Positions 401-23,702 of a stretch of DNA of 64,000 nt are shown one piece after another. The number at the start of each line of letters is the position of its first letter. Position 1 is the first letter of the stretch. The DNA is from Enterobacteria phage GiZh. The DNA is taken from sequence record NC_054903.1; one strand, 5' to 3'. The notes below the pieces were generated by a model, which was not told where the DNA came from, searched no databases, and saw nothing but the letters and a program-made list of their open reading frames with translations. Both the position numbers and the translations under genes were made by a program.

Positions 401-408
401 AATTTTCC

Positions 409-750
409 TCAATCACAAGATGTAGATGAACAACTAGAATCACAAGAACTTCCACATGAATCACCTGCCCATACATGAACAGGAACATTGGTGTCATATG
501 AATCAGAACTAGACTGTGTATTCTGTGCATTAGATGATGTAGTAGGTACTGACCAGCGCCAAGGATTTTTATAATATTCTTGGGCTTCTTCATAAGTCAT
601 AGTAACTGCTTCTACTGTTCCATCTCCCATATAAACATATTCAACTACAGTTAAAGGAAGATAGTCATTTGAAATAGGAACTACACCTTCTCCCGGAGTT
701 GTAGAGAAAAAATCTGTAAAGAAATTTTTAAACCAATTAAAGATAAACAT
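409..750 (-). CDS. hypothetical protein with Ser/Cys-rich C-terminal tail
   Basis: 113-aa ORF, stop abuts next gene start; C-terminus [17 protein letters not shown]. Confidence 0.5.
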
Positions 751-962
751 TACAAAAAGCCTCTTTGAAATTCGACTCTTTGAAATCCACCCCAGTCAGT
801 ATATCGCATTTCAGCATTGAACTCGACTGAACCATCTGCATGCATCATGAATGAATGCGTGACGACATCACAATCCCAGCTTTTCATACCCCATTTATCA
901 GAGATAGCTTTATCAAGAACCTTCTGAAGGTCTTCATTTGGTTTAATCCAACGATTTAACAT
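750..962 (-). CDS. hypothetical protein
   Basis: 70-aa ORF, ATGA-type junction with downstream ORF in same-strand operon. Confidence 0.45.
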   Translation of the reverse strand: MLNRWIKPNEDLQKVLDKAISDKWGMKSWDCDVVTHSFMMHADGSVEFNAEMRYTDWGGFQRVEFQRGFL

Positions 963-1060
963 AGTGTTCTCCTCTATAAGATATTTTTATTATACCACAC
1001 TCATTTTGACATGTAAACCATAAAATGAAAAAAGGAATCCCGAAGGATTCCTTAAATTAT

Positions 1061-1318
1061 TTAACCACCTACACCAGGTGTAGGTGTAACAGTCCAAAGA
1101 CCTTCATTAGCAGTGATCCATTCAGTACGCTGATTTTCTTCATATACTGTAGAATATGCTGCTTTTTCAGAAGGGAATGTCTGATAATGAGCACCAGAAA
1201 TTTTGTGAACATCAGAATAAAGAGGGAAAGCTACAGAAATTTCTTTACCCTGAATTGTACCACCATCAACTGCTTGGTCAAATGTTTTGATATTAACATA
1301 ACCGCGAGTACTAGCCAT
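1061..1318 (-). CDS. soc: small outer capsid protein Soc
   Basis: MASTRGYVNIKTF...ISVAFPLYSDVHKISGAHYQTFPSEKAAYSTVYEENQRTEW matches recalled T4 Soc; ATG verified at 1318-1316. Confidence 0.9.
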   Translation of the reverse strand: MASTRGYVNIKTFDQAVDGGTIQGKEISVAFPLYSDVHKISGAHYQTFPSEKAAYSTVYEENQRTEWITANEGLWTVTPTPGVGG

Positions 1319-1334
1319 GTAATTCTCCTTTTAT

Positions 1335-1544
1335 TTAAATTACATGATTATTTATAATAAATTCTCGCGGAACGTTAAAATACCCGATTTTAGTTAATAT
1401 AACAACATCGCCGTTAATAATTACCGGAGAATAATCTTCTGGAGCATTAAATTTCCAATGGGCTCTAATATTATATCCATCAGAACCAAATGCTCGCGTA
1501 GCTGGTCTCCCAGCTTTTTGCCATGCGTAGAAATCAAATTTCAT
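1335..1544 (-). CDS. hypothetical protein (soc.1 position)
   Basis: 69-aa ORF between soc and gene 56; this interval holds soc.1/soc.2 in T2-type phages (segF in T4). Confidence 0.5.
   Translation of the reverse strand: MKFDFYAWQKAGRPATRAFGSDGYNIRAHWKFNAPEDYSPVIINGDVVILTKIGYFNVPREFIINNHVI
1349..1356 (-). promoter_or_regulatory. T4-type late promoter (TATAAATA on minus strand) upstream of soc
   Basis: plus-strand tatttata about 30 nt upstream of soc ATG; soc is a late gene in T4. Confidence 0.55.
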
Positions 1545-1735
1545 TTTGAATGCTCTATAATTAATTTTAAAGCTTCTTCACTGACAAAAATTTCGTCAGG
1601 ACCTTCTATAACTTCAACCATACGAAGTTGATTAGTTAAGAGCTCACATACGAGCTCCTTGTTATAATCTTTAAATAGCTGGTCAATACGTTTCTTATGG
1701 GCTTTCTTGAGCTGACGCTTATTTAAACGAGCCAT
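1541..1735 (-). CDS. hypothetical protein (soc.2 position)
   Basis: 64-aa ORF, overlapping stop/start junctions with neighbours. Confidence 0.5.
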   Translation of the reverse strand: MARLNKRQLKKAHKKRIDQLFKDYNKELVCELLTNQLRMVEVIEGPDEIFVSEEALKLIIEHSK

Positions 1736-2253
1736 TAATAACCTCGGTCTTGACGAGCGAAGTTTTCAGCATTTTTCAGATAATAAAGTTTAAATATTTC
1801 TTCAGCTGACATTCCAAGAGCAATGAATTTATTCATGAAAAAGTGAAATTGATCAATCAGTTCAAATTTAATTTCAAGCTGATCTTCAGGAGATAAATCT
1901 TGAATTTTCTTGGATTGCATTTCAGAATAACGTTTCTTCCAAGGTTTCCATACAGCAGAAGCTTCTTTTTCGCCATTACTCATACCACCGAGAGAAGTAT
2001 ATAGCTCGCGAGTTTCGTCTGCGATATAATCGTCTTGGTTTCGCAACCAAGCAAGAACTTCTCCCGCAGTTTCAAGTGAATCAGGATGACGATTTGTTTC
2101 TGGTTTATCATTAGCCAAACGAATCTGTAAATGCCGCTGCATGTCAAGCATAACCTGCAGTGGGTCAATATTGTGCATAATATTCTCAGCATATGCACGA
2201 TTTGCTTTATCAACACCTTCGATCAAATGAGCACATTCATTAAAGTAAGCCAT
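1735..2253 (-). CDS. 56: dCTP pyrophosphatase (dCTPase/dUTPase) gp56
   Basis: From internal ATG at 2253-2251 (RBS AAAGGAAA): MAYFNECAHLIEGVD...KNAENFARQDRGY, 172 aa, matches recalled T4 gp56; track N-terminal extension judged artifact. Confidence 0.85.
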   Translation of the reverse strand: MAYFNECAHLIEGVDKANRAYAENIMHNIDPLQVMLDMQRHLQIRLANDKPETNRHPDSLETAGEVLAWLRNQDDYIADETRELYTSLGGMSNGEKEASAVWKPWKKRYSEMQSKKIQDLSPEDQLEIKFELIDQFHFFMNKFIALGMSAEEIFKLYYLKNAENFARQDRGY

Positions 2254-2287
2254 TATTTTTCCTTTCAATTCATGGGTTAGTAGATTA

Positions 2288-2312
2288 ATTATACAATAAA
2301 TATATAAAGCAA
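2288..2312 (-). promoter_or_regulatory. candidate MotA-dependent middle promoter for gene 56
   Basis: minus-strand TTGCTTTA (MotA box) then ~11 nt then TATAAT, about 35 nt upstream of gene 56 ATG. Confidence 0.4.
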
Positions 2313-2324
2313 TAAGGAGGACAT

Positions 2325-2525
2325 ATGGTACAAAAATTAATGGCACTTGTTAATGCCATCAAAGGTAATAAGAAACGTATAGCTTTTACTATTTCTGCTA
2401 TGGTAGGAATTTTACTCTGGAACTTTATTTTATCACCAATTGCAATTGCACATGGTGTTAATATTCCAGTAGTTACTCTTGATACATTTGTAGATTTAGC
2501 ATTTGCTTTAGTTGGGTTAATTTAA
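2325..2525 (+). CDS. hypothetical small hydrophobic protein (opposite strand)
   Basis: ATG 2325 preceded by AAGGAGG at optimal spacing; 66 aa, hydrophobic; only plus-strand ORF with a strong RBS in the early region. Confidence 0.3.
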   Translation: MVQKLMALVNAIKGNKKRIAFTISAMVGILLWNFILSPIAIAHGVNIPVVTLDTFVDLAFALVGLI

Positions 2526-3550
2526 ATCTTAGCATATTTAGATAACCGCATTTTAGCCATCAACCCCTGGGCAATATTATTTTTCATATATTCCATAATT
2601 TGTTCAGGGGTTGCACCTTCCTTTCTAATCATATCATTAACATCTTTTGATTTCCAGGGAGATTTATCCCAAAACATAACCCTTTCTCCTGCATCAACTA
2701 ATTTAGTCATTCGCTTAATAGTGTCAGGATGACGAGGTTCATTATCTAAGACCCACACACGCCTATCTTTAAATGGAACAACTTCTAGGTCTAATTGACC
2801 ACCCGTAATAGCTATACCATTTTCAATAAAAAGTGAATCTATAGGTCCTTCTAAAACATATACATCACCATCTTTAACTCGTTCGACTCCATATATTTTT
2901 GTTGCCTCAGGATAAGCTTTGATGGTGATATATTTTTGAGGAGCATCTTTCTTTAATGCACGTCCTTGAAAAGACTCAGCTTTTCCATTAGCATTATAAA
3001 TTGGAATAACAAGACGAGGCTCAGAAATTTCCTTTTTGTATGTTCCCGGTGCTATGCTATTAACTAATTTAGGCCATTCAGTTGTAAACCAAAGATATTT
3101 CCATTTATCCTTTGGAATACAACGAGCTTTTACATATTTTATAATTGCATGGTCTTCCGCCAGTTTATCTAATCGAACACATGACGGAAGAGATTTAATT
3201 ATTTTCTTCTCAGGTTGTTTAGGAAGTTCTTTAGGTTTTTCTACTGGACGACTTTTACCTTTTTCTTTTCTTATTTCAAAGATATACTCACGATATAAAT
3301 CAGGTTCAAACTCCTTTAAATATATTCCGATTGGTGCATGATAGTTACAGTTATAACAATGAATATTTCCTTCATTATTATCACCATAATACCATCCACG
3401 AGCTTTATTCTGGTCGGTTTTTGAATCTCCACAAACAGGACATCTAAACCGTAATTTAAAAGTTGAACTATTATTTACTTGTGTGAATTTAGGTAAATGA
3501 GCTAATGCACGGTATGCAAACTCATTATCAATCCAAGGTATTGATGACAT
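2522..3550 (-). CDS. 61: DNA primase gp61
   Basis: 342 aa; MSSIPWIDNEFAYRALAHL..., zinc ribbon CPVCG...CYNC, TOPRIM-like VLDNEPRH; ATG verified at 3550-3548. Confidence 0.9.
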   Translation of the reverse strand: MSSIPWIDNEFAYRALAHLPKFTQVNNSSTFKLRFRCPVCGDSKTDQNKARGWYYGDNNEGNIHCYNCNYHAPIGIYLKEFEPDLYREYIFEIRKEKGKSRPVEKPKELPKQPEKKIIKSLPSCVRLDKLAEDHAIIKYVKARCIPKDKWKYLWFTTEWPKLVNSIAPGTYKKEISEPRLVIPIYNANGKAESFQGRALKKDAPQKYITIKAYPEATKIYGVERVKDGDVYVLEGPIDSLFIENGIAITGGQLDLEVVPFKDRRVWVLDNEPRHPDTIKRMTKLVDAGERVMFWDKSPWKSKDVNDMIRKEGATPEQIMEYMKNNIAQGLMAKMRLSKYAKI

Positions 3551-3713
3551 TTTTACTCTTCTTTTTCTTTAGATTCCTCTTTTTTTTAGGAATCTGTTCA
3601 GGACCTTTATTTACTACAGCGCCTGATGTTGTTCCAGTAGAGATATTTTCAGGATTACCACCTGAATCTCCAGCTACCATATCTTCTTTAATAAATTCTT
3701 TATATGTTTTCAT
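3528..3713 (-). CDS. small basic protein with capsid-targeting-like N-terminus
   Basis: ATG 3713-3711 with AGAGGT RBS; N-terminus MKTYKEFIKE; C-terminal KKKRNLKKKKSKN; 23-nt out-of-frame overlap with gene 61 start. Confidence 0.5.
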   Translation of the reverse strand: MKTYKEFIKEDMVAGDSGGNPENISTGTTSGAVVNKGPEQIPKKKRNLKKKKSKNVINTLD

Positions 3714-3714
3714 A

Positions 3715-4071
3715 TTAACCTCTATTCATAAAAGCATTAAAAATTTGGTCATCAATAGATGGAATAGCAACCTTTTCGGCATCATTTAGCAAATCATTAA
3801 TTTCATCAGATAGCATAACACATGTGCCTTTATTTCCTGTAATTGTTACTGCGCAATTACGAACGTTTTCTTTATCAAATTTTAGGTTAATATTTTCGTA
3901 GTGAAAATCCTTTAATGCCGAATATATCTTTAAAATGAAATTGTCTTTTACTACAATAAACCCAACCTCACTATTAAAACGCGGTTCATGGAAACTGTAA
4001 TAAACCTTTTCATCTATAAAATCGTATGAAATTTTTTCCATTTTTAAATATGAAAATTCAGAACTATACAT
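3715..4071 (-). CDS. hypothetical protein (61.1 position)
   Basis: 118 aa; ATG verified; C-terminus SIDDQIFNAFMNRG shared with next gene. Confidence 0.55.
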   Translation of the reverse strand: MYSSEFSYLKMEKISYDFIDEKVYYSFHEPRFNSEVGFIVVKDNFILKIYSALKDFHYENINLKFDKENVRNCAVTITGNKGTCVMLSDEINDLLNDAEKVAIPSIDDQIFNAFMNRG

Positions 4072-4072
4072 A

Positions 4073-4705
4073 TTAACCTTTATTCATAAAAGCATTAAAA
4101 ATTTGATCGTCAATAGAAACTTTTACTTTAGGCTGTTCTTCAAACGGTAATTCATATCCACATATTACAATTTTGTGATCGATACCAAAATACACAGAAG
4201 CAATATTATTAATATTATTTTCAGTGAAATCTAAATCAACATCAATATCTTTTTGACTAACGCTCAAAGGATAATTAATACGAATAATTCGATTATCTTT
4301 AACAAAGATTCCACCGACATACTCTGTGCTGCGTTTAAAGTTTACACGTTTCCTAAATGAAAAATATTCAGGTTCTTTATGCGCTCGACTCATAGGGCTT
4401 AAAGTGTATTCCGAATATGAAATATCAAATCCTACACCTTCAATATGAGCCAAAGTGTCATGATTAAACCAATTATAATCGTATGCCAAATCCATTAAAT
4501 TGTAATATGTGAAAGGCACCGGATTAACATCATATGTTGTACCTTTAAAATCTGCCCAGGCAACGATTTCGTTATCTTTAACAATTACAAAAATTGTGCC
4601 AATAAGATATCCACGGTTATTTTCATCAGGTGTTATATTATAACATTGTGCATCAGGAAATTTACCGTATTTAAACGGTGGATTTTTGTGCATATAATAA
4701 ATCAT
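4073..4705 (-). CDS. hypothetical protein (61.2 position), two internal repeats of a VKDN module
   Basis: 210 aa; ATG verified; GTIFVIVKDNEIV and GGIFVKDNRIIRI modules; C-terminus SIDDQIFNAFMNKG. Confidence 0.55.
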   Translation of the reverse strand: MIYYMHKNPPFKYGKFPDAQCYNITPDENNRGYLIGTIFVIVKDNEIVAWADFKGTTYDVNPVPFTYYNLMDLAYDYNWFNHDTLAHIEGVGFDISYSEYTLSPMSRAHKEPEYFSFRKRVNFKRSTEYVGGIFVKDNRIIRINYPLSVSQKDIDVDLDFTENNINNIASVYFGIDHKIVICGYELPFEEQPKVKVSIDDQIFNAFMNKG

Positions 4706-4706
4706 A

Positions 4707-5000
4707 TTATTCGCCTGTGATTTCGGTTACGATATTTTTGTTATTAAAGTTTTTATCGCAATACAGAACATAATTATACTGCATTACACCACCAGACTTA
4801 AGCTGTTTTTGTACTTCAGCTTTCATTTCAGGACGATCGCGCTCAACGATATTCATAATATCCGCTTCAATTTGAGTTTCAACTTCAGTCTGATCTGCAG
4901 TCATAGACCATTCACACAAATCTTTATCATAGCCTGCCATAGCAGGCTGAGCAGCACAAGAAGCCAAAGTAAAAATTGTAGCAAAAATAAATTTTTTCAT
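4707..5000 (-). CDS. sp: Spackle-like periplasmic protein
   Basis: 97 aa with signal peptide MKKFIFATIFTLASCAAQPAMA; size and position between 61 and dmd as in T4. Confidence 0.75.
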   Translation of the reverse strand: MKKFIFATIFTLASCAAQPAMAGYDKDLCEWSMTADQTEVETQIEADIMNIVERDRPEMKAEVQKQLKSGGVMQYNYVLYCDKNFNNKNIVTEITGE

Positions 5001-5060
5001 GATAATCTCCTCAGTAGTTTATGTTTATATAGTATCTCAATTTCCAACAAAAGTAAACAG

Positions 5061-5318
5061 CTATTTTAAAACTTCTGCGTAATCACATGTTACAAACTGT
5101 TTCTCTAGCTTAACGATTTTACGAAAATGCCTTTTACACTGACGAATCTGCCTCTTCGTAGGACGTACAACAAACTTAATAAATTCCACTCGACCAAATG
5201 GAGGACTTTCTTCTGCTGGAATATCTAACACCAATTCCCATGTATCCGCAATAAGCGCTTTGAATTGCGTATTTTTCCTGACGTTATACGGAGTAGGTTT
5301 AAATAAAACAATATGCAT
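5061..5318 (-). CDS. hypothetical protein (61.4 position)
   Basis: 85-aa ORF, ATG verified, 2-nt gap to dmd. Confidence 0.5.
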   Translation of the reverse strand: MHIVLFKPTPYNVRKNTQFKALIADTWELVLDIPAEESPPFGRVEFIKFVVRPTKRQIRQCKRHFRKIVKLEKQFVTCDYAEVLK

Positions 5319-5319
5319 A

Positions 5320-5502
5320 TTATCCTCGGCAATCTACTTCACATACTTTCTTGTCATCAATGAAAGCTTTAACTAATGCTTTATTAACTTCAGCATATTG
5401 AGTAGTAGCCCATTGAACGTCATCTTTCATCATTGTGATTTCTTTAGTAAACATGCTTTCATTCTTAAACCACCCCATAAAAACTACCTTTACCAATTCC
5501 AT
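5320..5502 (-). CDS. dmd: Dmd antitoxin-type protein (discrimination of mRNA degradation)
   Basis: 60 aa MELVKVVFMGWFKNESMFTKEITMMKDDVQWATTQYAEVNKALVKAFIDDKKVCEVDCRG; size and position match T4 Dmd. Confidence 0.8.
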   Translation of the reverse strand: MELVKVVFMGWFKNESMFTKEITMMKDDVQWATTQYAEVNKALVKAFIDDKKVCEVDCRG

Positions 5503-5531
5503 AACAATCTCCTCATTTAACCAACAAGACT

Positions 5532-5561
5532 ACTATACCATAGTCTTGTCAGCTTGTAAAC
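5532..5561 (-). promoter_or_regulatory. T4-type early promoter upstream of dmd
   Basis: minus strand: AT-rich UP, GTTTACA, 17-nt spacer, TATAGT. Confidence 0.5.
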
Positions 5562-6988
5562 TAAAATTTTAATTCATTTGCCAAAGCATCTAACTGAGCT
5601 CGAGCGGATTCGTTTCTTTGATAGCGATTCTGTTCAGCCTGAATCTGCTGTGAACCTGCTACTTCGTTCACTTCAGTTGGAGTAGAATCTTGTTCAATTT
5701 CTACCCATTTTTGATTTCCTTTTTGAACACCCATCAAAAACTTATTCCACTTATTCTTATCACCATATCGTGATTTGATTTGCTTAATAAGTTGTTGTTC
5801 AGCAGCTGCCAACTCCTCGGTTTCAATGACCGCAAGCATAAAATCGGCTGTCGCTGGAAGACCAGCAGATTCTGCGATATCACTCATGTTAACATCAGAA
5901 GAATCCCAAGCTTGTTTACCAACCTGTGCTGCAGTCCAAAGAACAGTTTCGGTTTCAACAGCAAGAGCACGCAATTCCTCTGCAATAGCTTTAACAGTTG
6001 TGTAACTATTTTCTGAATAAACTCTAATGCGGCAAGATTTACAAATACCTAGATAGTCGACAATAATGATTGTTGGAACAAAATTCTTTTTGAGCTTCAA
6101 TTCATTCAAGAGAGACCTGAATGTGTTAGCATCTGCTCCACCAGTAGGGTACTGTTTAACGATTAAACGACCAAGAGTAGATTTCTCACGCCATTTTTCC
6201 ATTTTTCCTTTATACTCAGCGTAAGAAATATGTCCATCATCAATATCGTCAAGAGAAACATCGAGCATGTTAGCATCAATACGTTTAGCACAGACTTCTT
6301 CTGCCATTTCCATGGAAATGTAAAGAACATTATGTCCGAGCTGTAAATAATCTGCTGCCAATGAACACAATCCTAATGACTTACCAACGTTAACGCCAGC
6401 CATTAAAACGTTCAGCGTTCCAGTTTCAGCTCCGCCTTTCGTAATTTTGTTTAGAATTCTGAGTTTAAATGGAACCTTACGAGCTTTATTCATATAAGAT
6501 AGCCAACGTGCTTCGTAGTCATCCATCCAATCATGACCAACGTAGCTATCAAATGAAATTGATAATGCTTGACGCATGATGTCAGGAATAGCACCAACAT
6601 CCGGCATTTTCTTATTTCGTTTTTCCGGAGGAAGCTCAGCATTAGTTTGAATTTCGATTATTTTAGACGTAGCATTAAACATCGCCCTTTGCTGAACATA
6701 TTTTTCTGTTTCTTTTACTAACCAGCTGTGGTCTTCTGGAGAATCGGCTAGTTTTGAAATAAGTGTTTTTACACCAGAATATTCCGTTTCAGTAAATGAA
6801 CTATTTTCTAATGCAACATTTAACGCATTAATAGATGGAACGCTATGATACTCATTAACATGAGATTTAATTAATTTGAATGTATTTTTAGCTGGACCAC
6901 TTTCAAAATATTCTGAATCCATATATGGCCAAACTTTTGAAAAATAAGCTTGATCAAATATGAGATGAGAAAGAATAATTTCTACCAC
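5561..6988 (-). CDS. 41: replicative DNA helicase gp41 (DnaB-like)
   Basis: 475 aa; Walker A GVNVGKS; MVEIILSHLIFDQAYF...; apparent GTG start. Confidence 0.95.
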   Translation of the reverse strand: MVEIILSHLIFDQAYFSKVWPYMDSEYFESGPAKNTFKLIKSHVNEYHSVPSINALNVALENSSFTETEYSGVKTLISKLADSPEDHSWLVKETEKYVQQRAMFNATSKIIEIQTNAELPPEKRNKKMPDVGAIPDIMRQALSISFDSYVGHDWMDDYEARWLSYMNKARKVPFKLRILNKITKGGAETGTLNVLMAGVNVGKSLGLCSLAADYLQLGHNVLYISMEMAEEVCAKRIDANMLDVSLDDIDDGHISYAEYKGKMEKWREKSTLGRLIVKQYPTGGADANTFRSLLNELKLKKNFVPTIIIVDYLGICKSCRIRVYSENSYTTVKAIAEELRALAVETETVLWTAAQVGKQAWDSSDVNMSDIAESAGLPATADFMLAVIETEELAAAEQQLIKQIKSRYGDKNKWNKFLMGVQKGNQKWVEIEQDSTPTEVNEVAGSQQIQAEQNRYQRNESARAQLDALANELKF

Positions 6989-6997
6989 ACTTACTCC

Positions 6998-7360
6998 TTA
7001 AAAGAATTTAAATTTTTTCTTTGACCTTTTATTAAATGCATCTTGTAGTTGCATTGTAATACATTTTTCTACATGAGGAGCTAACTCAGCTTTTCTTTCT
7101 TGGTCAAGAACAGCAAAGTCCATTACGACTTTTCCATCAACCCAATCTAATTTTGTCACATACACAATGTGTGTAGAACCGTCTTCTAGTTTAATGACAA
7201 TCTCCTGGATAACATTTTCCATGGCAGATTTAATTATCTTAAGAGATTCATTAAAAAGACGTTCTTTTCTTTCTTCTTCCCCCTCCGAAGAGGGGGATTC
7301 ATCGATAATTTCTAGATCTAAATCTAAATCATCTTTATTCATTAAATTCTTCCATATCAC
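6998..7360 (-). CDS. 40: gp40-like head vertex assembly chaperone
   Basis: 120-aa ORF between uvsX and 41 as in T4; acidic N-terminus DLDLDLEIIDESPSSEGEEE. Confidence 0.6.
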   Translation of the reverse strand: MIWKNLMNKDDLDLDLEIIDESPSSEGEEERKERLFNESLKIIKSAMENVIQEIVIKLEDGSTHIVYVTKLDWVDGKVVMDFAVLDQERKAELAPHVEKCITMQLQDAFNKRSKKKFKFF

Positions 7361-8516
7361 TTAACTGCTCGAGGTCAGTTTCTAAATCAGCAGCTGATTT
7401 ACTTTTACTTTCTGGAGATTTAAATTTTTCAACCTTTGAGTTAATCAATTCATCAACTTCAGCTTCAACAATTTCATTACTATCAATAGCACCTAACTGA
7501 TAAGCACGTTTAATAGCATCTCGGAATGGTTGATGCTTAAATAAAGGACCCCAGAATGTGGTGCAGTTGGTATCTTTTGCACGCCAAGATTTTTCTTCGC
7601 GAATCATCTCACCGGTTTCTTCATCAAGAAATTCACGAGCATACCAACCATTTTTAGGTTTTACCACGAATCCTAATTCTAGAGCCATATCTAACAATCC
7701 AGAATAAGGATCGATACCGCCGTCAAATTTAACATCAATAAAGAATTTACTTTTTTCTTTAACGGTACGAGATTTTTCTACATTTAGAACAAATTGATAC
7801 CCCTGAAGATCAGAACCATCTTTAATCTGGCGTTTACCGATAATGAATACAGTATCAGCCGAATACATTACGCCTGTACCACCTGTCATCACGGTTTTAC
7901 TAAACATTTCAATTGTTTCAATTGTATGGTTAACCGCAACACATGGAATATTTTTAATGCTAAAATAAGGAGTAACAATACGGAATAATGACTTCAGTGA
8001 TTTAGCACGAGTCATATCTGCCACAGATTTTTCATTCAAGGCATCTTCCGTTTCTTTCTTAGAAGCCATATTACCGATTGAGTCGATGAATACAATAACC
8101 TTTTCACCACGCTCAATAGCTTCAAGCTGATTCACCATATCAATTTTCAGCTGTTCAACTGACTGGATTGGCGTATGAATTACTCGTTCCGGGTCAACTC
8201 CCATGGATCGCAAATAAGCTGGAGTAATACCAAATTCGCTATCATAGAATAGACAAACCGCGTCAGGATATTTGTTCAAATACGCCGCAACCATAGTCAA
8301 AGACATATTTGATTTAAAGTGTTTAGAAGGACCTGCAAAAATAGTTAAACCAGACTGCATGCCGCCATCAATCGCACCAGAAATAGCAATATTAAGCATT
8401 GGAATTTTTGTACGAATTACATCCTTTTCATTAAAGAATTTAGATGTAGTCAGTTCAGCAGTCATTTTAGAAGTGGAAGCTTTAATCAAACGGGATTTTA
8501 AATCTGCAATAGACAT
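7335..8516 (-). CDS. uvsX: recombinase UvsX (RecA/Rad51 family)
   Basis: 393 aa; ATG verified; Walker A GPSKHFKS; near-identical to recalled T4 UvsX over most of its length. Confidence 0.95.
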   Translation of the reverse strand: MSIADLKSRLIKASTSKMTAELTTSKFFNEKDVIRTKIPMLNIAISGAIDGGMQSGLTIFAGPSKHFKSNMSLTMVAAYLNKYPDAVCLFYDSEFGITPAYLRSMGVDPERVIHTPIQSVEQLKIDMVNQLEAIERGEKVIVFIDSIGNMASKKETEDALNEKSVADMTRAKSLKSLFRIVTPYFSIKNIPCVAVNHTIETIEMFSKTVMTGGTGVMYSADTVFIIGKRQIKDGSDLQGYQFVLNVEKSRTVKEKSKFFIDVKFDGGIDPYSGLLDMALELGFVVKPKNGWYAREFLDEETGEMIREEKSWRAKDTNCTTFWGPLFKHQPFRDAIKRAYQLGAIDSNEIVEAEVDELINSKVEKFKSPESKSKSAADLETDLEQLSDMEEFNE

Positions 8517-8593
8517 TCATTTTTTCCATAGGCATCATTATATTTTCCTCACTGGTTAAAGATAGAGTAATTATAACACAATAAATTTAGGCA

Positions 8594-9436
8594 TTAATCA
8601 ACTGCTATTGGATGAATAGCATTAAACTTATGAAATGCTTCTGATTTTTCTTTACGCGAAACACACATGCGAAGAACCTTTAGTGGTTCATCTTCTTCAC
8701 CCAACGATTTTCGTTTTTCAATATTAGAAGTTTTCCAACGAGCTTGCTCTGGAAACTCTCTATTGATTTGCTCAAGCGCTCTATTATGTTTAGAATTACT
8801 GCGAATTGAACTGCACCCGCCAGGAGCTTGTGCTTTTCCAGATACAACCAGATATTTGAACAAGGCCAAATGCGGATAACCTTGATTAATTAAATTGAGA
8901 AATGCATACATATCTTCGCACAAATCAATTTTTCCATACCCAATTTGTTCTGTCGTAAGTTTTCCAAGGTCATACCATGTATTCGTGAATCCATATGAAT
9001 TTTCACGATAATTACCCCAAGATGAAGTAATTTTAAAAATAGGTAGACGAGCATGGCCATGATAATACCCACAATCCATGGCATCCTCAACATATTGAAT
9101 CAATTCATAGAACTGTTCACGAGTCAATTGATTGACTTTATCCACACAACGACGATCATCTCTTTTTCGCATTGAACTCATACGAATAGTAGTATCATCG
9201 TCAATCATCCAGATTCGTTGACCTGCATACATATCAGTAATTGCTTTACGAGTGCCGGCAATTCCGTTTACATCATCAGGAATAGTTACAATTTTAGCTC
9301 TAGACCCGTAAGCGTCATAATAAGCTTTTTCTTCGTGTTCACGCACTACAATATGGGGTTCATAATCAGTCGGAAACATATCAAGGGCAGAAACTGCCCC
9401 TACACGTTGATAGCTCGGAATTACGAATTGAATCAT
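8594..9436 (-). CDS. putative glycosyltransferase (occupies the T4 segA/beta-gt position)
   Basis: 280 aa from verified ATG 9436-9434 (ATGA overlap with gene 42 stop); DxD-like IDDDTT motif; does not resemble recalled T4 beta-gt. Confidence 0.45.
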   Translation of the reverse strand: MIQFVIPSYQRVGAVSALDMFPTDYEPHIVVREHEEKAYYDAYGSRAKIVTIPDDVNGIAGTRKAITDMYAGQRIWMIDDDTTIRMSSMRKRDDRRCVDKVNQLTREQFYELIQYVEDAMDCGYYHGHARLPIFKITSSWGNYRENSYGFTNTWYDLGKLTTEQIGYGKIDLCEDMYAFLNLINQGYPHLALFKYLVVSGKAQAPGGCSSIRSNSKHNRALEQINREFPEQARWKTSNIEKRKSLGEEDEPLKVLRMCVSRKEKSEAFHKFNAIHPIAVD

Positions 9437-10173
9437 TTCCACTCACCGTTATAATCTTTTTTCACAATATGAGTTTCGCCAGTATTCCACCAATGATCAA
9501 CCAAGTAAAAATGACGAGAATATACATGAAGACTTCCAACATTCCATATAATAGAACCTGCTTTATACTGACGAGTTGAATCGCCTGCATTCAAATCAGA
9601 TACTAATTTATCTAATACGTATTTTTGCCATGCATAATCATTACGGAATCCGAAGACCACGTCATTTGAGCGCATGCTTACTACTGCATTGACTTTCTTA
9701 TCACGAATCAGGTACTGTACTGTATTAGTACACATGAAATCTGACATACCATCTTTATTGTAGTCAAATTGCATGGATGGACGAGTATAAATCATGATAC
9801 CACGTCGAGAATCAGGATTTTGACCAAGTTCAGCTAAACACATATCATACTGGGCATAGTTATCTTCTGACCAAATAGCCCAACCATAATTCGAGTTAAT
9901 TTCGCCTTTAGAAGATGCTACCTGCTGCCAAATCTTTGGTGTTTCACCTGGAATATCTTTAACAAACAAGCTCTTAGATTTATACCATTCAAGTTCACGC
10001 TGAATGTATTCATCATTAAGAGCGCCAAAAATAAACGGTTCATCTGCTACAAATGATGCGCCAATAATTTCAATAGTTTTAACACCAGTTTTATCAACTA
10101 CGAAATCTTTTTCCTTTAATGCAAGCCCCAAATGAAGACGGATTTCTTCAACTGTCATAGAGTCACTAATCAT
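9433..10173 (-). CDS. 42: dCMP hydroxymethylase gp42
   Basis: 246 aa; MISDSMTVEEIRLHLGLALKEKDFVVDKTG...; ATG verified. Confidence 0.9.
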   Translation of the reverse strand: MISDSMTVEEIRLHLGLALKEKDFVVDKTGVKTIEIIGASFVADEPFIFGALNDEYIQRELEWYKSKSLFVKDIPGETPKIWQQVASSKGEINSNYGWAIWSEDNYAQYDMCLAELGQNPDSRRGIMIYTRPSMQFDYNKDGMSDFMCTNTVQYLIRDKKVNAVVSMRSNDVVFGFRNDYAWQKYVLDKLVSDLNAGDSTRQYKAGSIIWNVGSLHVYSRHFYLVDHWWNTGETHIVKKDYNGEWK

Positions 10174-10326
10174 TTAAACCTCAATTGATGCATTCATATT
10201 TAAATTGTAACAGTAATAAACCCCACCCTATGATAAGAGTTGGAATCATAGCAGGAACTGTTACGCTATAGTATATACTTATTATAACCATCAAGATTAA
10301 AAGCAACACTGTTATAATTTTGCTTT

Positions 10327-10578
10327 TCATTCTTTCTCTCTGATGATAATTACCTGATTTGGCTGTGCAGACTTTTTAGTTTCACTAGCAATTGACCAAA
10401 TAAATGTAATAAACCAACCAATAATTGACCAGTTAAACAGTAAAGACGTGAAAAAGATTCCTACTGTCGATTTTGACCCACGCATCAAGGCGATAAACCA
10501 TGGAAGCATGTATATAATAATAGCCAACACACCTGAAACTAAAACCATAAAAATTGAACCTGCTACTAAAGTTTCCAT
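10327..10578 (-). CDS. imm: Imm superinfection immunity membrane protein
   Basis: 83 aa, two hydrophobic helices (METLVAGSIFMVLVSGVLAIIIYMLPWFIALM...); ATG verified. Confidence 0.8.
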   Translation of the reverse strand: METLVAGSIFMVLVSGVLAIIIYMLPWFIALMRGSKSTVGIFFTSLLFNWSIIGWFITFIWSIASETKKSAQPNQVIIIREKE

Positions 10579-10593
10579 GTTTTCCTCACTTAG

Positions 10594-10968
10594 TCAATTT
10601 TTTTTTACACATGAATTATAAGAATTCACTACATACTCCATCGGAGCATTTTTACCAGTACGCCATTGGTAATTATTAGCCCAATTAGCCCAAATTTCGG
10701 CGCAGTAGTTTTCAATTTTTTCTTCGCGTGTAATTACATCAGAATTACGATATGCTTGAGCAGATTCATCTGGACGAATAGCTTCGTCAAAATTCGCCTG
10801 CATTTGTTCTACTGTTTGCTTTGGAGCTTCTTTATAACACTTGACATTAGGATTATAAAATTTGCTTGAACAGTTTACAATTTTTCCTACACCAGACTGA
10901 TTTACTACCGGTCCTTGAGCTACACAACCAGTAAGACCTAATGCAATAACCAAAATAGCGATTTTCAT
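10594..10968 (-). CDS. predicted lipoprotein
   Basis: 124 aa; signal peptide with lipobox MKIAILVIALGLTGC; ATG verified. Confidence 0.6.
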   Translation of the reverse strand: MKIAILVIALGLTGCVAQGPVVNQSGVGKIVNCSSKFYNPNVKCYKEAPKQTVEQMQANFDEAIRPDESAQAYRNSDVITREEKIENYCAEIWANWANNYQWRTGKNAPMEYVVNSYNSCVKKN

Positions 10969-10978
10969 AATAATTTCC

Positions 10979-11215
10979 TCAAATGCAAGTAGTAATTACT
11001 CCAGTAGTGCTTATGCAGGTATTACCCATTTGCACACCTAAAGATCCATTTGTATTCACATGAAGATTATCATCAATTTTAACTGATATTTTACCATTAG
11101 TGTGAATAACGGTGCTAGATTCAATCACAGGTTGAGTATCATTTTCAACACTAACAAATGGAACTGCTGCTAATGCAACTAAACAAACTGCTAAGCATCC
11201 CATAACAATTTTCAT
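10979..11215 (-). CDS. small secreted protein
   Basis: ATG 11215-11213 with GGAG RBS gives MKIVMGCLAVCLVALAAV... signal peptide; track start 11227 is TTG inside the promoter leader. Confidence 0.5.
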   Translation of the reverse strand: MKIVMGCLAVCLVALAAVPFVSVENDTQPVIESSTVIHTNGKISVKIDDNLHVNTNGSLGVQMGNTCISTTGVITTCI

Positions 11216-11252
11216 TTTATTCTCCAAATCTGTATCAGTAGTTGATAGTTGT

Positions 11253-11282
11253 ATAGTACCATGGAAGAACAGTCTTGTAAAC
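11253..11282 (-). promoter_or_regulatory. T4-type early promoter
   Basis: minus strand GTTTACA, 17 nt, TACTAT plus AT-rich UP; part of a 34-nt block identical to 54261-54294. Confidence 0.55.
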
Positions 11283-11369
11283 AGTTTTGTGAAAATTTTT
11301 TAGGGAATTCTAAAGGTCCAGAATCATCTGTTTTTCATAAGTATAGATTTATATTACTTGTATGAAAAA

Positions 11370-11385
11370 GGGACCCGGAGGTCCC
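11370..11385 (-). terminator. intrinsic terminator downstream of gene 43
   Basis: GGGACC-tccg-GGTCCC hairpin followed by U-run on minus strand. Confidence 0.6.
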
Positions 11386-11398
11386 TAGATTTATTCTA

Positions 11399-14095
11399 TC
11401 AGCCAAACAGGAAGTCTAACGAAGCTTTTTCTTCATAGTCCATACCAGCCGATTCACACATGCCTGCAAGCGGTTTAACAAACGATTTTTGGAACAAAGT
11501 TGAGTAGTCAATCCAAGACAATACGTCAGAACGAATTTCTTTTGGAAGTTCTGTGCCCGACGGCCAAGCAATGCACTTGTCACCAAATGGATTTCCTTCA
11601 CGCAATGGAAGAACCATTACTTTATTTCCATCCAAAATTGGAGCTACACCTAAACCGTTAACAGCTCGACGATAAGTTAGCACACCACGAATATGGAACG
11701 GGCATTTAAATCCTGGCCAACCTTTATCATCATATTTCGCTATATCGTTCGCAGTTTTTACTTCAGCGATAACTTTATAGTCAAGTTGACGATATTCTTT
11801 CTCGAAGTTCTTGTAGTATTCTTGAACAGACTCTTCACCTTCCTGAAGAATACGACGAATACTTTCTTCGAGTGCTTCTTGCACTGCTTTTGGTGTTGAA
11901 CTCTGCTGAGTTTCCATACCCATGATTTTTAGATGCGGTTCAGCAAATCGCTTATCTTCCATATCATAAACGTTCAGAGCATAACGCTTTTTCGCTTTCC
12001 AAAATCCGCCAACGCCCTTTGAACCAAGTGGAGGGCAAGAAATAGCTTCACGGTCCATATGCATCAGATGCTCGCGGTTATTCATATAATCACATAACTC
12101 ACGATATGCAACATCAATCATAGGTTCCATCTTTTTCTTACCGAATTGATTCATGAATTCAACTAAATCGTTCTGCTCTTTGAATCGGTCAAGACCAACT
12201 TTTTCAATAACTTTATCTACACAAACATATACCGAATCAGTATCACCTGCTGCGATGAAATCTTCGCCATTAGTTCCACATACTTTATTCAGATACTCAT
12301 TAATTTTACGAGCAATCCACTGAATACCAACTTGACCAAAAATTGTGATAGCAGTAGCATTTCGCAAATCATAGTAACGGAAATGAATGTTACCAAGAGC
12401 ACCATAAAGACTATTAATAAGAATTTTACGGTTCAGCTGATTTGTGTTAGCAAGTGTAGCTGCTTTTTCACATTCTTCAATCAAACTATTGAGAACAGAT
12501 TCAGTATAATTCGATAGTTCATTTAAGAAATCATCACTGAACTTAACATATCGTTCAACTTCAGGTTTAGTTGAACAAGACCCTGCGCCTTTCATAATAA
12601 TCTTTTTAATAGCTTCGGCATTCATTTCTTCAGCGAACATTTTCTTTTTCCAATCTTTACGCTGGAAAAATACTTTAGCGATTTCCTTTGGAATGATACC
12701 TTCTTGATGCTTATCGTACATCCATCCATTCGGAGAACAAGAATATTCATCACTCGGTTTAGGAGCTGTTCCTGCGATATATTCATGAATTGGATGAACT
12801 TTAAACTGCCCACGAATAGTCTCAGGACTAATGTTAACCTGACGAATAATGCTCGGATACAGAGACGTCAAGTCAAAACTCATAATATATCGACGAGCAA
12901 TTGGTTTAGGTTCAAACACAAATGCACCCGGAAAACTCTGTTTAACATGCGAACCTTGTTGAGGAATAACCTTATGTTCACCTTTCAATGAGTTAAAAAT
13001 AATAGCATCCCAGGTTTTAATAGGACTCATTACACCAGAAAAAGGCATTTTAGCGTAATAAGACATACTTAAAACTAGATCGATAAACCCGCGGATTTTA
13101 TCAATTGCTTGAACTGATTCTACGTCAATGATGTTATAACTAATGTATCGTTGATGATTAGTCTCACGAAGTTTATTAATAGGACCGTCGTATGGTAATT
13201 TACCTTTTTTGGTTTCATGCTGAGCAACTGATTCCAAAGAGAATGACGGCAAATTAGTAAATGCGAATTTCTTATACAAATCTAAATAATCAAGAATAGA
13301 TACGCCATCAATAGAATAAATTTCTTTGCTACCGTACATATTTTGGATAAGTTTAGATTTTACTCGACCGATTGGAGAGAAGCGTTTCATACTACGTTCA
13401 CCGAGAACCATTTTAACGCGATTCATGATATACGGAACGTCAAATCCCTCAATATTCCAACCAGTAAAAATAGCAGGTCGTTTCTGTTCCCAAAGATTGA
13501 TATATTCCATGAGCATATCACGCTCGTTATCGAATGGCATATAAATTACTCGGTCAAGAATTTCTTGAGGAACTTCATCACCACCTTCACAGTCAAGCTT
13601 AGCAGCTAACTTTGCATCCCATTTTGATACTGAACCGTACATTGAATTCAAAAGGTCGAAAACATAAAAACGGTCATCAATTGAATCGTAATGAGTGATA
13701 GCATCAATTTCATATTCTGCTTTCATTGGGTCAGGAAATTTATCACCAGTAACCTCAATGTCACAGTTAGCTACACGAACAAATTTTCGGTCATAAACAA
13801 TTTCTGAACCATATGTATCACTGATATAAGCGAGTTTAAAATCGTTCATACCGAGAGCTTCGAGACCGATGTCTTCCATTCGCTTCATCCAGTCTCGAGC
13901 ATCTTTCATTGATGGAAATTTTTGAGGAGCGCAATTTTTACCATAGATGTCTTTGTATTTTGACTCTTCCTTACAATGTCTAAACATAGTTGGAAGATAT
14001 TCTACTTCACGAGTACGTTCCTTTCCGTTTTCATCAATATAACGTTCAACAATGTTATTTCCGACTGTTTCAATAGAGATATAAAATTCTTTCAT
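11399..14095 (-). CDS. 43: DNA polymerase gp43 (family B, with 3'-5' exonuclease)
   Basis: 898 aa; MKEFYISIETVGNNIVERYID...; exo and polymerase motifs (DIE, YGDTDS); ATG verified. Confidence 0.97.
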   Translation of the reverse strand: MKEFYISIETVGNNIVERYIDENGKERTREVEYLPTMFRHCKEESKYKDIYGKNCAPQKFPSMKDARDWMKRMEDIGLEALGMNDFKLAYISDTYGSEIVYDRKFVRVANCDIEVTGDKFPDPMKAEYEIDAITHYDSIDDRFYVFDLLNSMYGSVSKWDAKLAAKLDCEGGDEVPQEILDRVIYMPFDNERDMLMEYINLWEQKRPAIFTGWNIEGFDVPYIMNRVKMVLGERSMKRFSPIGRVKSKLIQNMYGSKEIYSIDGVSILDYLDLYKKFAFTNLPSFSLESVAQHETKKGKLPYDGPINKLRETNHQRYISYNIIDVESVQAIDKIRGFIDLVLSMSYYAKMPFSGVMSPIKTWDAIIFNSLKGEHKVIPQQGSHVKQSFPGAFVFEPKPIARRYIMSFDLTSLYPSIIRQVNISPETIRGQFKVHPIHEYIAGTAPKPSDEYSCSPNGWMYDKHQEGIIPKEIAKVFFQRKDWKKKMFAEEMNAEAIKKIIMKGAGSCSTKPEVERYVKFSDDFLNELSNYTESVLNSLIEECEKAATLANTNQLNRKILINSLYGALGNIHFRYYDLRNATAITIFGQVGIQWIARKINEYLNKVCGTNGEDFIAAGDTDSVYVCVDKVIEKVGLDRFKEQNDLVEFMNQFGKKKMEPMIDVAYRELCDYMNNREHLMHMDREAISCPPLGSKGVGGFWKAKKRYALNVYDMEDKRFAEPHLKIMGMETQQSSTPKAVQEALEESIRRILQEGEESVQEYYKNFEKEYRQLDYKVIAEVKTANDIAKYDDKGWPGFKCPFHIRGVLTYRRAVNGLGVAPILDGNKVMVLPLREGNPFGDKCIAWPSGTELPKEIRSDVLSWIDYSTLFQKSFVKPLAGMCESAGMDYEEKASLDFLFG

Positions 14096-14155
14096 AGATA
14101 TTCCTTAGTTTATAGCCCGAGTTATTAGGCTCTTGATATATTATACTCCAAATAA

Positions 14156-14169
14156 GGGGCCGAAGCCCC
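14156..14169 (-). terminator. UUCG-tetraloop hairpin / terminator upstream of gene 43
   Basis: minus strand GGGGC-UUCG-GCCCC followed by U-rich tract. Confidence 0.55.
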
Positions 14170-14173
14170 TTGC

Positions 14174-14437
14174 TTAAATTAGTACTATTTGTCGGTGAAA
14201 AATTGTCATTCCATCTGCATTAATTGACTTAACGACTGCAGTAAAGTGTTTTTGTTCTGGGTGAATTAATTTTTGAAATTCTACCTGAAATTTTAGTTGA
14301 AGGTTTTCTGGTAAATCGAAAAGTGTTTCTGTTGCAGAAAGATTATATTTTTCTTTAAGAGACGCCATGTATTCTTGTGGAGTTATAGCAGTCATATTAA
14401 TTACCAATCGTATATTTAGGAACGAGTTTCCATTCAT
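14174..14437 (-). CDS. hypothetical protein between regA and 43
   Basis: 87-aa ORF; alternative ATGs at 14395 and 14368; start uncertain; overlaps regA 3' end. Confidence 0.4.
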   Translation of the reverse strand: MNGNSFLNIRLVINMTAITPQEYMASLKEKYNLSATETLFDLPENLQLKFQVEFQKLIHPEQKHFTAVVKSINADGMTIFHRQIVLI

Positions 14438-14765
14438 GTTTTTGTTTAAAAGAAATAACTCGGAAGTTATTAGTTAAATCTTTCATAAAAGTTCTTTGAC
14501 CAGGAACGATTTCAATCAGCCCCCAATCTTCTAACAACCATGCAATCGAATCACGACGAACTTCATCTTCTTCTGTCATTTCAACTTGACGACCATCCAT
14601 ACGAAGCATTTCTTTAAAATGAACGATATAGTATAGTCCTTTTTTCTGAAGAATATGACAGGACTGATACAGAACTTTATCTTTATTATTAGCAATTCCC
14701 ATACGAGTCAAAGTTTCTTTTACTTTCAGAAAATCTTCAGGTTTTTTAAGAGTAATTTCAATCAT
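14397..14765 (-). CDS. regA: translational repressor RegA
   Basis: 122 aa, size and position as T4 RegA; ATG verified. Confidence 0.85.
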   Translation of the reverse strand: MIEITLKKPEDFLKVKETLTRMGIANNKDKVLYQSCHILQKKGLYYIVHFKEMLRMDGRQVEMTEEDEVRRDSIAWLLEDWGLIEIVPGQRTFMKDLTNNFRVISFKQKHEWKLVPKYTIGN

Positions 14766-14766
14766 T

Positions 14767-15330
14767 TTACCATTCCAATGCTAGTTTTTTGAGTTGTTTC
14801 TGTTCTTTTACGTTCTTAGTCACTTCTTTCAAAAAATCATCCGTGACTAAACCTTTTAGTTCTTTTAATACTAAAGGAAGTTTTCCATTTTTAGTAAGAA
14901 TTGATTTATAGTTAATTGCATCATTTGTATTAACTTGATACCGCTTAGCAATTAACTTAATAATCAATACTTCGGTGGAATCTTCAACTAGTTTTGCCCA
15001 TTTACCATATCTTTTACCACGAGGAACTGCAGCCATTAGATAATTAAAATGAGCTTCATCACTTAAGCCTGATCCAATTAAATTCATAGCATATACAGCT
15101 GGCATGCACTCTGGAAATTGTGATAATGCATTTTCAACCATGAATTTTGAATAATCTTTTTGAGCAATAGAGCATTTAGTTTTATTATTAATAGCTCCAA
15201 TTATTTCAAAAAACTCATTTTCAGCTTTTTCTTTAAAAGAATCAGCAGCGGATTGGACAGCTGTCCAATCTTTTGAATACCAAGCAACTTGATGCTCGTT
15301 TAATTGAATATCATCTTCAAATAAGCTCAT
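14767..15330 (-). CDS. 62: clamp loader small subunit gp62
   Basis: 187 aa; [22 protein letters not shown]...; between regA and 44. Confidence 0.9.
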
Positions 15331-15331
15331 A

Positions 15332-16291
15332 TCACTTCCACTGCATTTCGCATGCTAATTGAATGAAAAGATATGCTAAATGTAATTCCGTATTAGCCGC
15401 AATTCCATGATACTGGTTATTTTCACCAACAATTTCATACATACGAATAATACTTTGCGGAGTTACGCGTGTATAGATTTCTTCGGCAAGTTTACCAACG
15501 AACCACGAATAATCAGCCGCATATTTTGGTGCTAAAGCTCTGAGTTGTTTAACATCTTTATTTTTGAGAGACTCAAGAACATCATCAATAGCACCACGAT
15601 CGTTAGTAACCAGTGATAAAATACCAGCATCCAAAACACCTTTAGACGAATAACTATCGAGCTCGCCAATAGTTTTACGAAAATCAGGAAAATTCTTTTT
15701 AACCAAAGCTGCTACAACTTTCATATCAGCTATAGCAATTCCTTCATGCTTACAGATTTCAGTCAATCGACGAATCATCTGCTTCATCATTTCAATTTTA
15801 TCTTCATCGGTTGGTTGACCGAACGTAATAACTCGGCAGCGTGACTGAAGTGGTTTAATAATACCATCAATATTGTTAGCAGTAATAATAATACTACAGT
15901 TTGAACTATAAGCTTCCATAAAGGAACGAAGATGTCGCTGAGACTCTGCTAACCCTGAACGGTCAAATTCATCAATAACGATTACTTTTTGACGACCATC
16001 AAATGAAGCTGCACTAGCAAAATTAGTTAAAGGACCACGAACGAAATCAATTTTACAATCTGACCCATTCACAAACATCATATCAGCATTTACATCATGA
16101 CACAATGCTTTTGCTACAGTTGTTTTACCTGTTCCTGGAGAAGGAGAATGAAGAATAATATGTGGAATCTTACCTTTACTTGTAATAGATTTAAAGGTTT
16201 CTTTATCAAAGGCGGGAAGAATACATTCATCGATAGTAGATGGACGATATTTCTGTTCAAGAATGTGTTCTTTTTCATTTACAGTAATCAT
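15332..16291 (-). CDS. 44: clamp loader ATPase gp44 (AAA+)
   Basis: From ATG 16291-16289 (RBS GAGGAAA): [18 protein letters not shown]..., Walker [11 protein letters not shown]; track start 16306 is TTG. Confidence 0.95.
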
Positions 16292-16325
16292 AATTTCCTC
16301 ATTCAAGTTTTAGTGTAAATTATAA

Positions 16326-16339
16326 AGGGCCGAAGCCCT
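16326..16339 (-). terminator. UUCG-tetraloop hairpin between genes 45 and 44
   Basis: minus strand AGGGC-UUCG-GCCCT; could attenuate or structure the 45-44 transcript. Confidence 0.5.
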
Positions 16340-16342
16340 CTA

Positions 16343-17029
16343 TTAAAAATCGTGGGTAGAATCAGCTTCAAGAGCTACTACATAATTCGCATGTTCACCT
16401 TCAAATTTAGCAGCACCTTGTTTACCTTTTGCCCAGAGCAGAAGTTTATAATTTCCTGGTTGCATTTTCATATTTGCCATATTGATAATGAAATTAAATG
16501 TATTTTCACCATCATAATCACCAAGAGTCAAAGAATATTTAACACGAGTCAAAGCAGAATCTTCTACTTTATTAAAACCGTTAATTACGATTTTACCTTC
16601 TTTTACCGTGATAGCAATTGTATCAATTTGCAGACCACGAGATACACGCAACAGTTGTTGAAGGTCTTCAGCTTTAATTTCAGTAACAACAGATGCTACC
16701 GGGAATGGAATTGGTTTATTAGGAGCAACTACTGTACTCGGATCGGCTGCTGGCCAAAAAATTGTTGAACGAGCATCAGCAATTTTAATATTTCCATCTT
16801 CTGACTGGGAAATTTCTGCATCATCATTAACTAGAGACAGAATACCAAGAAAACCGTTCAAATCGTAAATCGCTACATCAAAATCAATAGTGTCAGAAAT
16901 ATTTGCTTCTGCATAAGTTGTACCATTAACTGCGCGAGTCATAATAAATTGACCTGATTTAAGCATAATGCCAGAGTTAATAGTAGCGAAATTTTTCAAA
17001 ATATTCAGTGTGTCTTTAGATAATTTCAT
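16343..17029 (-). CDS. 45: sliding clamp gp45
   Basis: 228 aa; MKLSKDTLNILKNFATINSGIMLKSGQFIMTRAVNGTTYAEANISD...; ATG verified. Confidence 0.95.
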   Translation of the reverse strand: MKLSKDTLNILKNFATINSGIMLKSGQFIMTRAVNGTTYAEANISDTIDFDVAIYDLNGFLGILSLVNDDAEISQSEDGNIKIADARSTIFWPAADPSTVVAPNKPIPFPVASVVTEIKAEDLQQLLRVSRGLQIDTIAITVKEGKIVINGFNKVEDSALTRVKYSLTLGDYDGENTFNFIINMANMKMQPGNYKLLLWAKGKQGAAKFEGEHANYVVALEADSTHDF

Positions 17030-17913
17030 TTCAATTTCCTATTTACATAATAGTTAGACCAGGACCGTACAGCACCCTGATAAGATTCGTCGTTAAACCC
17101 ATTAGCTACTGCAATTTTACGAAATTTATTATAACTTGGTTTTCCGTAAGCATGCCATAAAGATTTTAATTCATCTTCATGTTCAATCCAAGTTCCTCTA
17201 GCTTTAGATTTTCTAAATTTTGATTTGAATTCCGGTAAATTATTTCTAACAGTTGCTTGAATTGAAGCTCTCTGTCTTCTTTCAGCATTATTCCATAATT
17301 CTTTTTGAGATTTAGAAATTTTTGATCTTACACTTTCTGAATTCATTATATCACTAAACTTTTTAGCATAACTACAATCAAGATATTTCAATTTCATCTT
17401 ATTTGAGAGTTTAAGCTTTTTCTCATCGGTCCAGTGATTCTTCATTGAATTAGATATTTTGTATTTTACTTCAGAACTATGTTTGTAACCTTTACGAATA
17501 CCGACATACTCAGGCGTAATTTCAGATTGCGAAAGCTTTACAATTTTTCCAGTTAAAACATTTTTATATGTTCCATATCCTTTAGCACCAATTAAAGTAT
17601 TTTCATCTGCGTATGCTTTATTAAAATATTTTATATTACTCTTTGCTTTAACTTTTAATTGAAAAAATCTCTCCAATTTTCTTGGATCTAATATAGTTTC
17701 AGCTAAAATTTTGACGGTATATTTAGTGGTTTTAATAAGTTCAAAATATTCATCGCTATAACTCGATGACACGCTTCCAGTATAAATCTTTCCAGCTGAA
17801 TCAATTATATTTGTTCCATCGAAAATTGCGTTAATTTTTGAACCTATATAATAACACGGAAAAATATTTTTAGCTTCCCGCTCTGGAAAGCTAATAAGAT
17901 ATACTAAATTCAT
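17026..17913 (-). mobile_element. freestanding GIY-YIG-like homing endonuclease gene (between rpbA and 45)
   Basis: 295 aa; N-terminal VYLISFP-(10)-YYIGSK (GIY-(X10)-YIG pattern); Lys-rich C-terminal half with NUMOD-like repeats; no gene sits here in recalled T4 order. Confidence 0.55.
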
Positions 17914-18299: not shown

Positions 18300-18308
18300 A
18301 ATACACCT

Positions 18309-18497
18309 TTAGTCATAATAATCAGTAACAGTCCAAGCTTCATTTCTATTGGACATTATTTTTGTATATTCTGCTTTAAATGCATTCCTAAGCATAGATT
18401 CAGTAACTATATGCTCTTCATTAGAAAAATTATTTCTCAGAATATATCGTTTTATTTCAGGAAAAGTTAATAAATGCTGTCCAGTTGAATATTCCAT
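18309..18497 (-). CDS. hypothetical protein (45.2 position)
   Basis: 62-aa ORF between gene 46 and rpbA. Confidence 0.5.
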   Translation of the reverse strand: MEYSTGQHLLTFPEIKRYILRNNFSNEEHIVTESMLRNAFKAEYTKIMSNRNEAWTVTDYYD

Positions 18498-23678: not shown

Positions 23679-23702
23679 TTAATATCCTCATTGTTTTGGT
23701 TT

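Follow-up and report, generated by a model that had tools for sequence, protein, structure and literature searches.

The uvsX/gene 42 slot of Enterobacteria phage GiZh very probably holds the gene of a T2/T6-type beta-alpha-glucosyltransferase

In phage T4, the slot between uvsX and gene 42 holds segA and the beta-glucosyltransferase gene b-gt. Which enzyme takes this place in Enterobacteria phage GiZh, and what does it add to the hydroxymethylcytosine (hmC) of the phage DNA? The analysis covered a stretch of 64,000 nucleotides (NC_054903.1; hereafter the window), for which the original prediction had put one 280-residue protein into the slot; ORF analysis and blastn proved the coordinates and the gene order to be exact. 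The gene, here designated ba-gt (beta-glucosyl-HMC-alpha-glucosyltransferase; beta-alpha-GT, TAGT family), is an intact ORF of 280 codons on the minus strand (8594..9436) that runs from an ATG at 9436 to a TAA at 8596-8594. The ORF listing also gives a 282-residue form that starts with a GTG at 9442, two codons upstream of the ATG. The ATG and the TGA stop codon of gene 42 share an ATGA motif, and 77 bp separate the end of ba-gt from the start of uvsX at 8516, with ba-gt lying upstream.

The downstream flank of the slot is the gene of the UvsX recombinase (7335..8516, minus strand), an ORF with 87.6% nucleotide identity to T4 uvsX that is annotated as such in near-identical phages, and genes 40 and 41 come after it. 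Gene 42 (9433..10173, minus strand) forms the upstream flank and encodes the dCMP hydroxymethylase that makes hm-dCMP. Its product matches PHROG 160, the thymidylate synthase/dCMP hydroxymethylase family (E 5e-67), the gene is 94% identical to its T4 counterpart at the nucleotide level, and the annotations of near-identical phages all call its homologue dCMP hydroxymethylase. Past gene 42 lie 42.1, imm, imm.1 and gene 43. When positions 7300-10400 of the window were compared with T4 19000-30000 by blastn, homology ended at 8504 and restarted at 9451. Therefore, a cassette of 946 bp (8505..9450) that is unlike T4 substitutes for the 1941 bp of segA and b-gt. A counterpart of segA, which is present beside uvsX in T4, is absent from the slot. 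Between imm.1 and gene 43 there is an ORF of 82 residues with a hydrophobic N-terminus (10979..11227, minus strand) that matches PHROG 4189, a family of unknown function; T2 has a gene of about this size, EcT2_00047, in the equivalent place, and the annotations of T4, T6 and RB32 are without one.

The ba-gt product matches PHROG 842, 'beta-glucosyl-HMC-alpha-glucosyltransferase', over residues 1-275 (E 3.3e-89) and Pfam PF20691 (TAGT, TET-associated glycosyltransferase) over profile positions 2-205 of 205 with 38.1 bits, which exceeds the gathering score of 27.5 bits; the NCBIfam search returned no match. Its sequence equals that of the protein annotated as beta-alpha-glucosyltransferase in Escherichia phages FelixPlatter and PaulHMueller (100% identity). 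Direct alignments gave 99% identity to the enzyme of T2 (AP018813), 98% to that of T6 (MH550421) and 99% to ORF041c of RB32, which is recorded as 'similar to T2, T6 b-gluc-a-gluc transferases', and the homologues of RB14, RB32, RB5 and RB51 are 99.3-99.6% identical. A tblastn search placed homologues in 687 phage records, of which 470 reach at least 95% identity; almost all homologues sit in this slot. The identical protein is encoded on 48 contigs, and the 90% cluster of 485 members to which it belongs also holds the T2 enzyme. The closest record to positions 1..25000 of the window is Escherichia phage PaulHMueller (98.0% identity, 99% coverage), and the stretch is identical to no listed record; this identity over the first 25 kb marks GiZh as an ordinary Tequatrovirus.

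We are thus highly confident that 8594..9436 encodes a T2/T6-type beta-alpha-glucosyltransferase (GT-A, TAGT) that adds a second glucose to give gentiobiosyl-hmC and, with it, DNA of the T2/T6 type. The original prediction had guessed at a T2/T6-type enzyme, and the identities to T2 and T6 together with the glycosyltransferase fold described below bear this out. Its broader expectation of a different second sugar modification is supported as well, with a refinement: the enzyme would not give hmC another kind of sugar but would extend the glucose placed by the alpha-glucosyltransferase with a further, beta-1,6-linked glucose. Position, fold class and role of the gene, like the gene itself, are already published and routinely annotated, and add no new biology.

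Three other identities were rejected because direct comparisons were without similarity. The protein is no divergent beta-glucosyltransferase: against T4 beta-GT, BLASTP gave only noise (best E 2.2), tblastn gave no match at E ≤ 10 anywhere in the T4 41-43 interval, neither the Pfam family of T4 b-gt (PF09198) nor a beta-GT in the PDB was matched, and the fold is GT-A instead of GT-B. That the protein does not resemble the N-terminus of T4 beta-GT had been anticipated correctly. An alpha-gt paralogue was dismissed as well, as the product has no similarity to the alpha-glucosyltransferase of the window. The RB69 arabinosyltransferases, named in the original prediction as a comparison to be made, are excluded as far as the uvsX-43 arabinosylation cluster is concerned: tblastn against RB69 18000-40000, a stretch that does not include ORF003c, gave a best E of 3.4. 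No genes for arabinose-5-P isomerase or for nucleotidyl-sugar synthesis were seen within the uvsX-to-gene-43 interval of the window, whose ORFs were assigned to imm, imm.1 and families without a known function.

The AlphaFold2 model of the ba-gt product (pLDDT 95.2, pTM 0.92) has a GT-A fold. The original prediction had left room for a protein without the fold of a glycosyltransferase, and the model speaks against that. It was built on a family alignment of 130 sequences; 336 family clusters were found at E ≤ 1e-3 among 1.84 billion representative proteins. In this alignment D80, D175 and G207 are invariant, and I6, P7, R11, R63, D79, D81, G186, G206 and R212 reach a conservation of 90% or more; the product of the window has every one of the family-invariant residues. 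The predicted DxD-like motif is indeed there and reads DDD (D79-D80-D81; codons at 9194..9202, minus strand), with its invariant residue in the middle. In the model it comes right after strand 74-78, which is its canonical place in GT-A enzymes, and it may bind the divalent metal and UDP-glucose. E174-D175, in the sequence CED (codons at 8912..8917, minus strand), stands at the N-terminus of model helix 174-184 and resembles the 'ED/TED' motif of GT2 enzymes; D175 is the putative catalytic base of an inverting GT2-like transferase. Neither the single sequence nor the family profile found a significant match in the PDB, where the best relevant match was a PglI-like GT2 at E 0.36 and no family member is represented; the assignment of catalytic residues therefore draws on the model and on conservation. 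The T6 enzyme has been modelled as a GT-A fold next to GT2, with alpha-GT and beta-GT being GT-B (PMC13216743); the model obtained here agrees with it.

Among known systems, the closest is ba-gt of T2 and T6 ('ggt'; ORF041c in RB32), which also has 280 residues, is 98-99% identical in amino-acid sequence and likewise carries the DDD and ED motifs. It also shares the uvsX/gene 42 slot, the start that overlaps the stop of gene 42, and alpha-gt, 42 and 56 as partner genes. Only three substitutions separate the product from the T2 enzyme (R11H, V50I, P251S) and four from the T6 enzyme over 261 residues (Y40N, V50I, D55G, R106H); these exchanges do not allow a functional difference to be deduced. 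With T4 b-gt (PF09198, PDB 1JG7) the gene has in common the position next to gene 42, UDP-glucose as donor and a beta linkage on modified phage DNA. However, the two proteins share neither sequence similarity nor fold, GT-A standing against the two Rossmann domains of GT-B, and the acceptor is the glucose of alpha-glucosyl-hmC rather than the hydroxymethyl group of hmC. Cellular inverting enzymes with a GT2-type GT-A fold (BcsA 4P00, PglI-like beta-1,3-glucosyltransferase 9JMA, TarP 6H1J, TarS 5TZE) are 7-16% identical, with no significant sequence or profile match, and they act on polysaccharide, lipid or teichoic acid, whereas the phage enzyme acts on glucosylated DNA. The RB69-type arabinosylation cluster of Mosigvirus likewise resides in the hypervariable uvsX-43 region and also builds mono- and disaccharide adducts of cytosine (PMC13390438). 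In contrast to ba-gt, this cluster uses a different sugar and a 5-hydroxy-dC ether linkage, has no sequence similarity to it and needs genes for sugar-nucleotide synthesis.

Is the acceptor for such an enzyme made in GiZh? As stated in the original prediction, a-gt is intact: the gene of the DNA alpha-glucosyltransferase, which makes the alpha-glucosyl-hmC acceptor, lies at 22476..23678 (minus strand), and its product of 400 residues matches the structure of T4 alpha-GT (1XV5) from end to end (E 6e-258). Gene 56, for the dCTPase/dUTPase that keeps unmodified C out of phage DNA, is found at 1735..2253 (minus strand); its product matches PHROG 173, nucleoside triphosphate pyrophosphohydrolase (E 2e-44), and its position is that of gene 56 in RB32. 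Since gene 56, gene 42 and a-gt are all present in the window, the acceptor of the second-step enzyme should be made by GiZh, and since they are intact, the DNA is predicted to be T2/T6-like, with hmC, alpha-glucosyl-hmC and gentiobiosyl-hmC and without beta-glucosyl-hmC.

This fits with what is known from related phages. The enzymes of T2 and T6 add glucose onto alpha-glucosylated hmC to give gentiobiosyl-hmC (PMC13216743), and deletion of ba-gt in T6 leaves only alpha-glucosyl-hmC and increases the sensitivity to the Brig1 glycosylase (PMC11078745). The expectation in the original prediction that sensitivity to restriction would be altered finds its counterpart in these T6 genetics. In Tequatrovirus phages with alpha-GT and TAGT, HPLC/MS revealed alpha-5-gentiobiosylmethyl-dC and no beta-glucosyl form, and T4 beta-GT is syntenic with TAGT (PMC13390438). 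The combination of alpha-gt and TAGT is the common arrangement in Tequatrovirus, and that of T4, alpha-gt with beta-gt, is rare (6/753 genomes; PMC13216743).

According to the pathway proposed for GiZh, gp56 would remove dCTP and gp42 would make hm-dCMP, so that replicated DNA contains hmC. Part of the hmC would then receive an alpha-linked glucose from the GT-B enzyme alpha-GT, and the ba-gt enzyme, probably active in GiZh, would use UDP-glucose to place a second glucose by a beta-1,6 linkage on the 6-OH of the first, giving gentiobiosyl-hmC. In this reaction, DDD 79-81 would hold the metal-UDP-glucose complex and D175 would activate the 6-OH group of the acceptor glucose for a single displacement with inversion. 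The bulkier gentiobiosyl sugar may then hide alpha-glucosyl-hmC from defences such as Brig1. Identity, family, fold, synteny and partner genes were computed in this work; the chemistry and the phenotype of the T6 knockout are taken from the literature.

How much of the DNA would be diglucosylated is a different matter. Gentiobiosyl-hmC amounts to about 5% in T2 and about 72% in T6 (PMC13390438), and since the two enzymes are nearly identical despite this gap, the diglucosylated fraction cannot be read from the sequence. Nor does the GiZh enzyme lean to one side: wherever T2 or T6 deviates, it keeps the consensus residue, and a T2-like or a T6-like level is therefore not predictable. It is very unlikely that the GiZh enzyme gives a different extent or pattern of diglucosylation, by way of expression or of an interaction with alpha-GT. 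If it did, the gap between T2 and T6 and the lesions in the T6 records would suggest an additional level of regulation or selection on ba-gt, as yet undescribed, of which the window gives no hint.

These lesions are found in both public T6 records. In MH550421 (4138-4980 of the compared stretch), ba-gt has an amber TAG at codon 10 (CAA to TAG), and the annotated gene starts at M20, giving 261 residues. In AP018814 (3135-3974 of the compared stretch), one Asp of DDD is lost in frame. The equivalent positions of the window are 9409..9407 for codon 10 and 9202..9194 for the DDD codons, and its copy is intact. With about 72% gentiobiosyl-hmC reported for T6, the lesions are odd; they may be mutations of laboratory stocks. 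Since each record shows an apparent lesion in ba-gt, the T6 reference sequences are imperfect comparators.

With regard to expression, the ATGA overlap would make translational coupling of ba-gt to gene 42 possible. Scans around ba-gt found 13 promoter-like sites (10.7 ± 3.8 in shuffled sequence) and 2 terminator-like sites (0.9 ± 0.9 in shuffled sequence); neither count is in excess, and no regulatory conclusion on ba-gt is drawn. Inside codons 12-18 of ba-gt there is a 9-bp GC-rich stem-loop followed by a T-rich run (9402..9382, minus strand; TAGGGGCAGTTTCTGCCCTTG), which was flagged as terminator-like and is kept in T2 and T6. This may reflect structure in the mRNA or be a chance feature. 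Elsewhere in the window, two ORFs for homing endonucleases were seen, both on the minus strand. One of 295 residues lies just upstream of gene 45 (17026..17913; PHROG 655, E 4e-33), the other, of 207 residues, between gene 47 and a-gt (21676..22299), where it matches PHROG 10820, annotated as HNH endonuclease (E 3e-94), and also PHROG 314, homing endonuclease. The annotations of RB32, T2 and T6 have no homing endonuclease at either place.

Could the enzyme act on bare hmC, as a primary transferase that functionally replaces T4 beta-GT? It does occupy the slot of T4 beta-GT, and distant TAGT homologues occur in phages without alpha-GT or beta-GT, some of which may use other acceptors (PMC13216743). 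However, we consider this highly improbable in view of the near-identity (98-99%) with the enzymes of T2 and T6, the alpha-monoglucosylated DNA that is left when T6 loses its enzyme (PMC11078745) and the absence of beta-glucosyl-hmC, by HPLC/MS, from Tequatrovirus phages with the same gene set (PMC13390438). The transfer of a different sugar, such as arabinose in RB69-type phages, is more improbable still, to the point of being nearly negligible: near-identical enzymes yield gentiobiose (PMC13390438), no reading frame of the RB69 uvsX-43 cluster is similar, and the arabinose-5-P isomerase and nucleotidyl-sugar genes were not seen in the uvsX-to-gene-43 interval, although the GT-A fold alone does not fix the specificity for the donor.

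There is also little reason to believe that ba-gt is inactive or unexpressed in GiZh and that the DNA contains only alpha-glucosyl-hmC and hmC. The damage in both public T6 records, at codon 10 or in DDD, indicates that the gene can become defective in laboratory stocks, and T2 reaches its low level of gentiobiosyl-hmC with an intact gene (PMC13390438). Yet the ORF is intact in GiZh with every family-invariant residue in place, its overlap with the stop of the essential gene 42 would allow coupled translation, and the very same protein sequence is carried by 48 contigs; an inactive gene thus appears most unlikely.

The assignment of a T2/T6-type beta-alpha-glucosyltransferase indicates which of the T-even DNA types GiZh makes, namely the T2/T6-like one. 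The DNA type, in turn, predicts the behaviour towards modification-dependent defences: GiZh is expected to be partly shielded from Brig1, the glycosylase that acts on alpha-glucosyl-hmC, and still to be a target of GmrSD-type enzymes. Typing of ba-gt is thus useful for annotation and for the choice of hosts or restriction enzymes.
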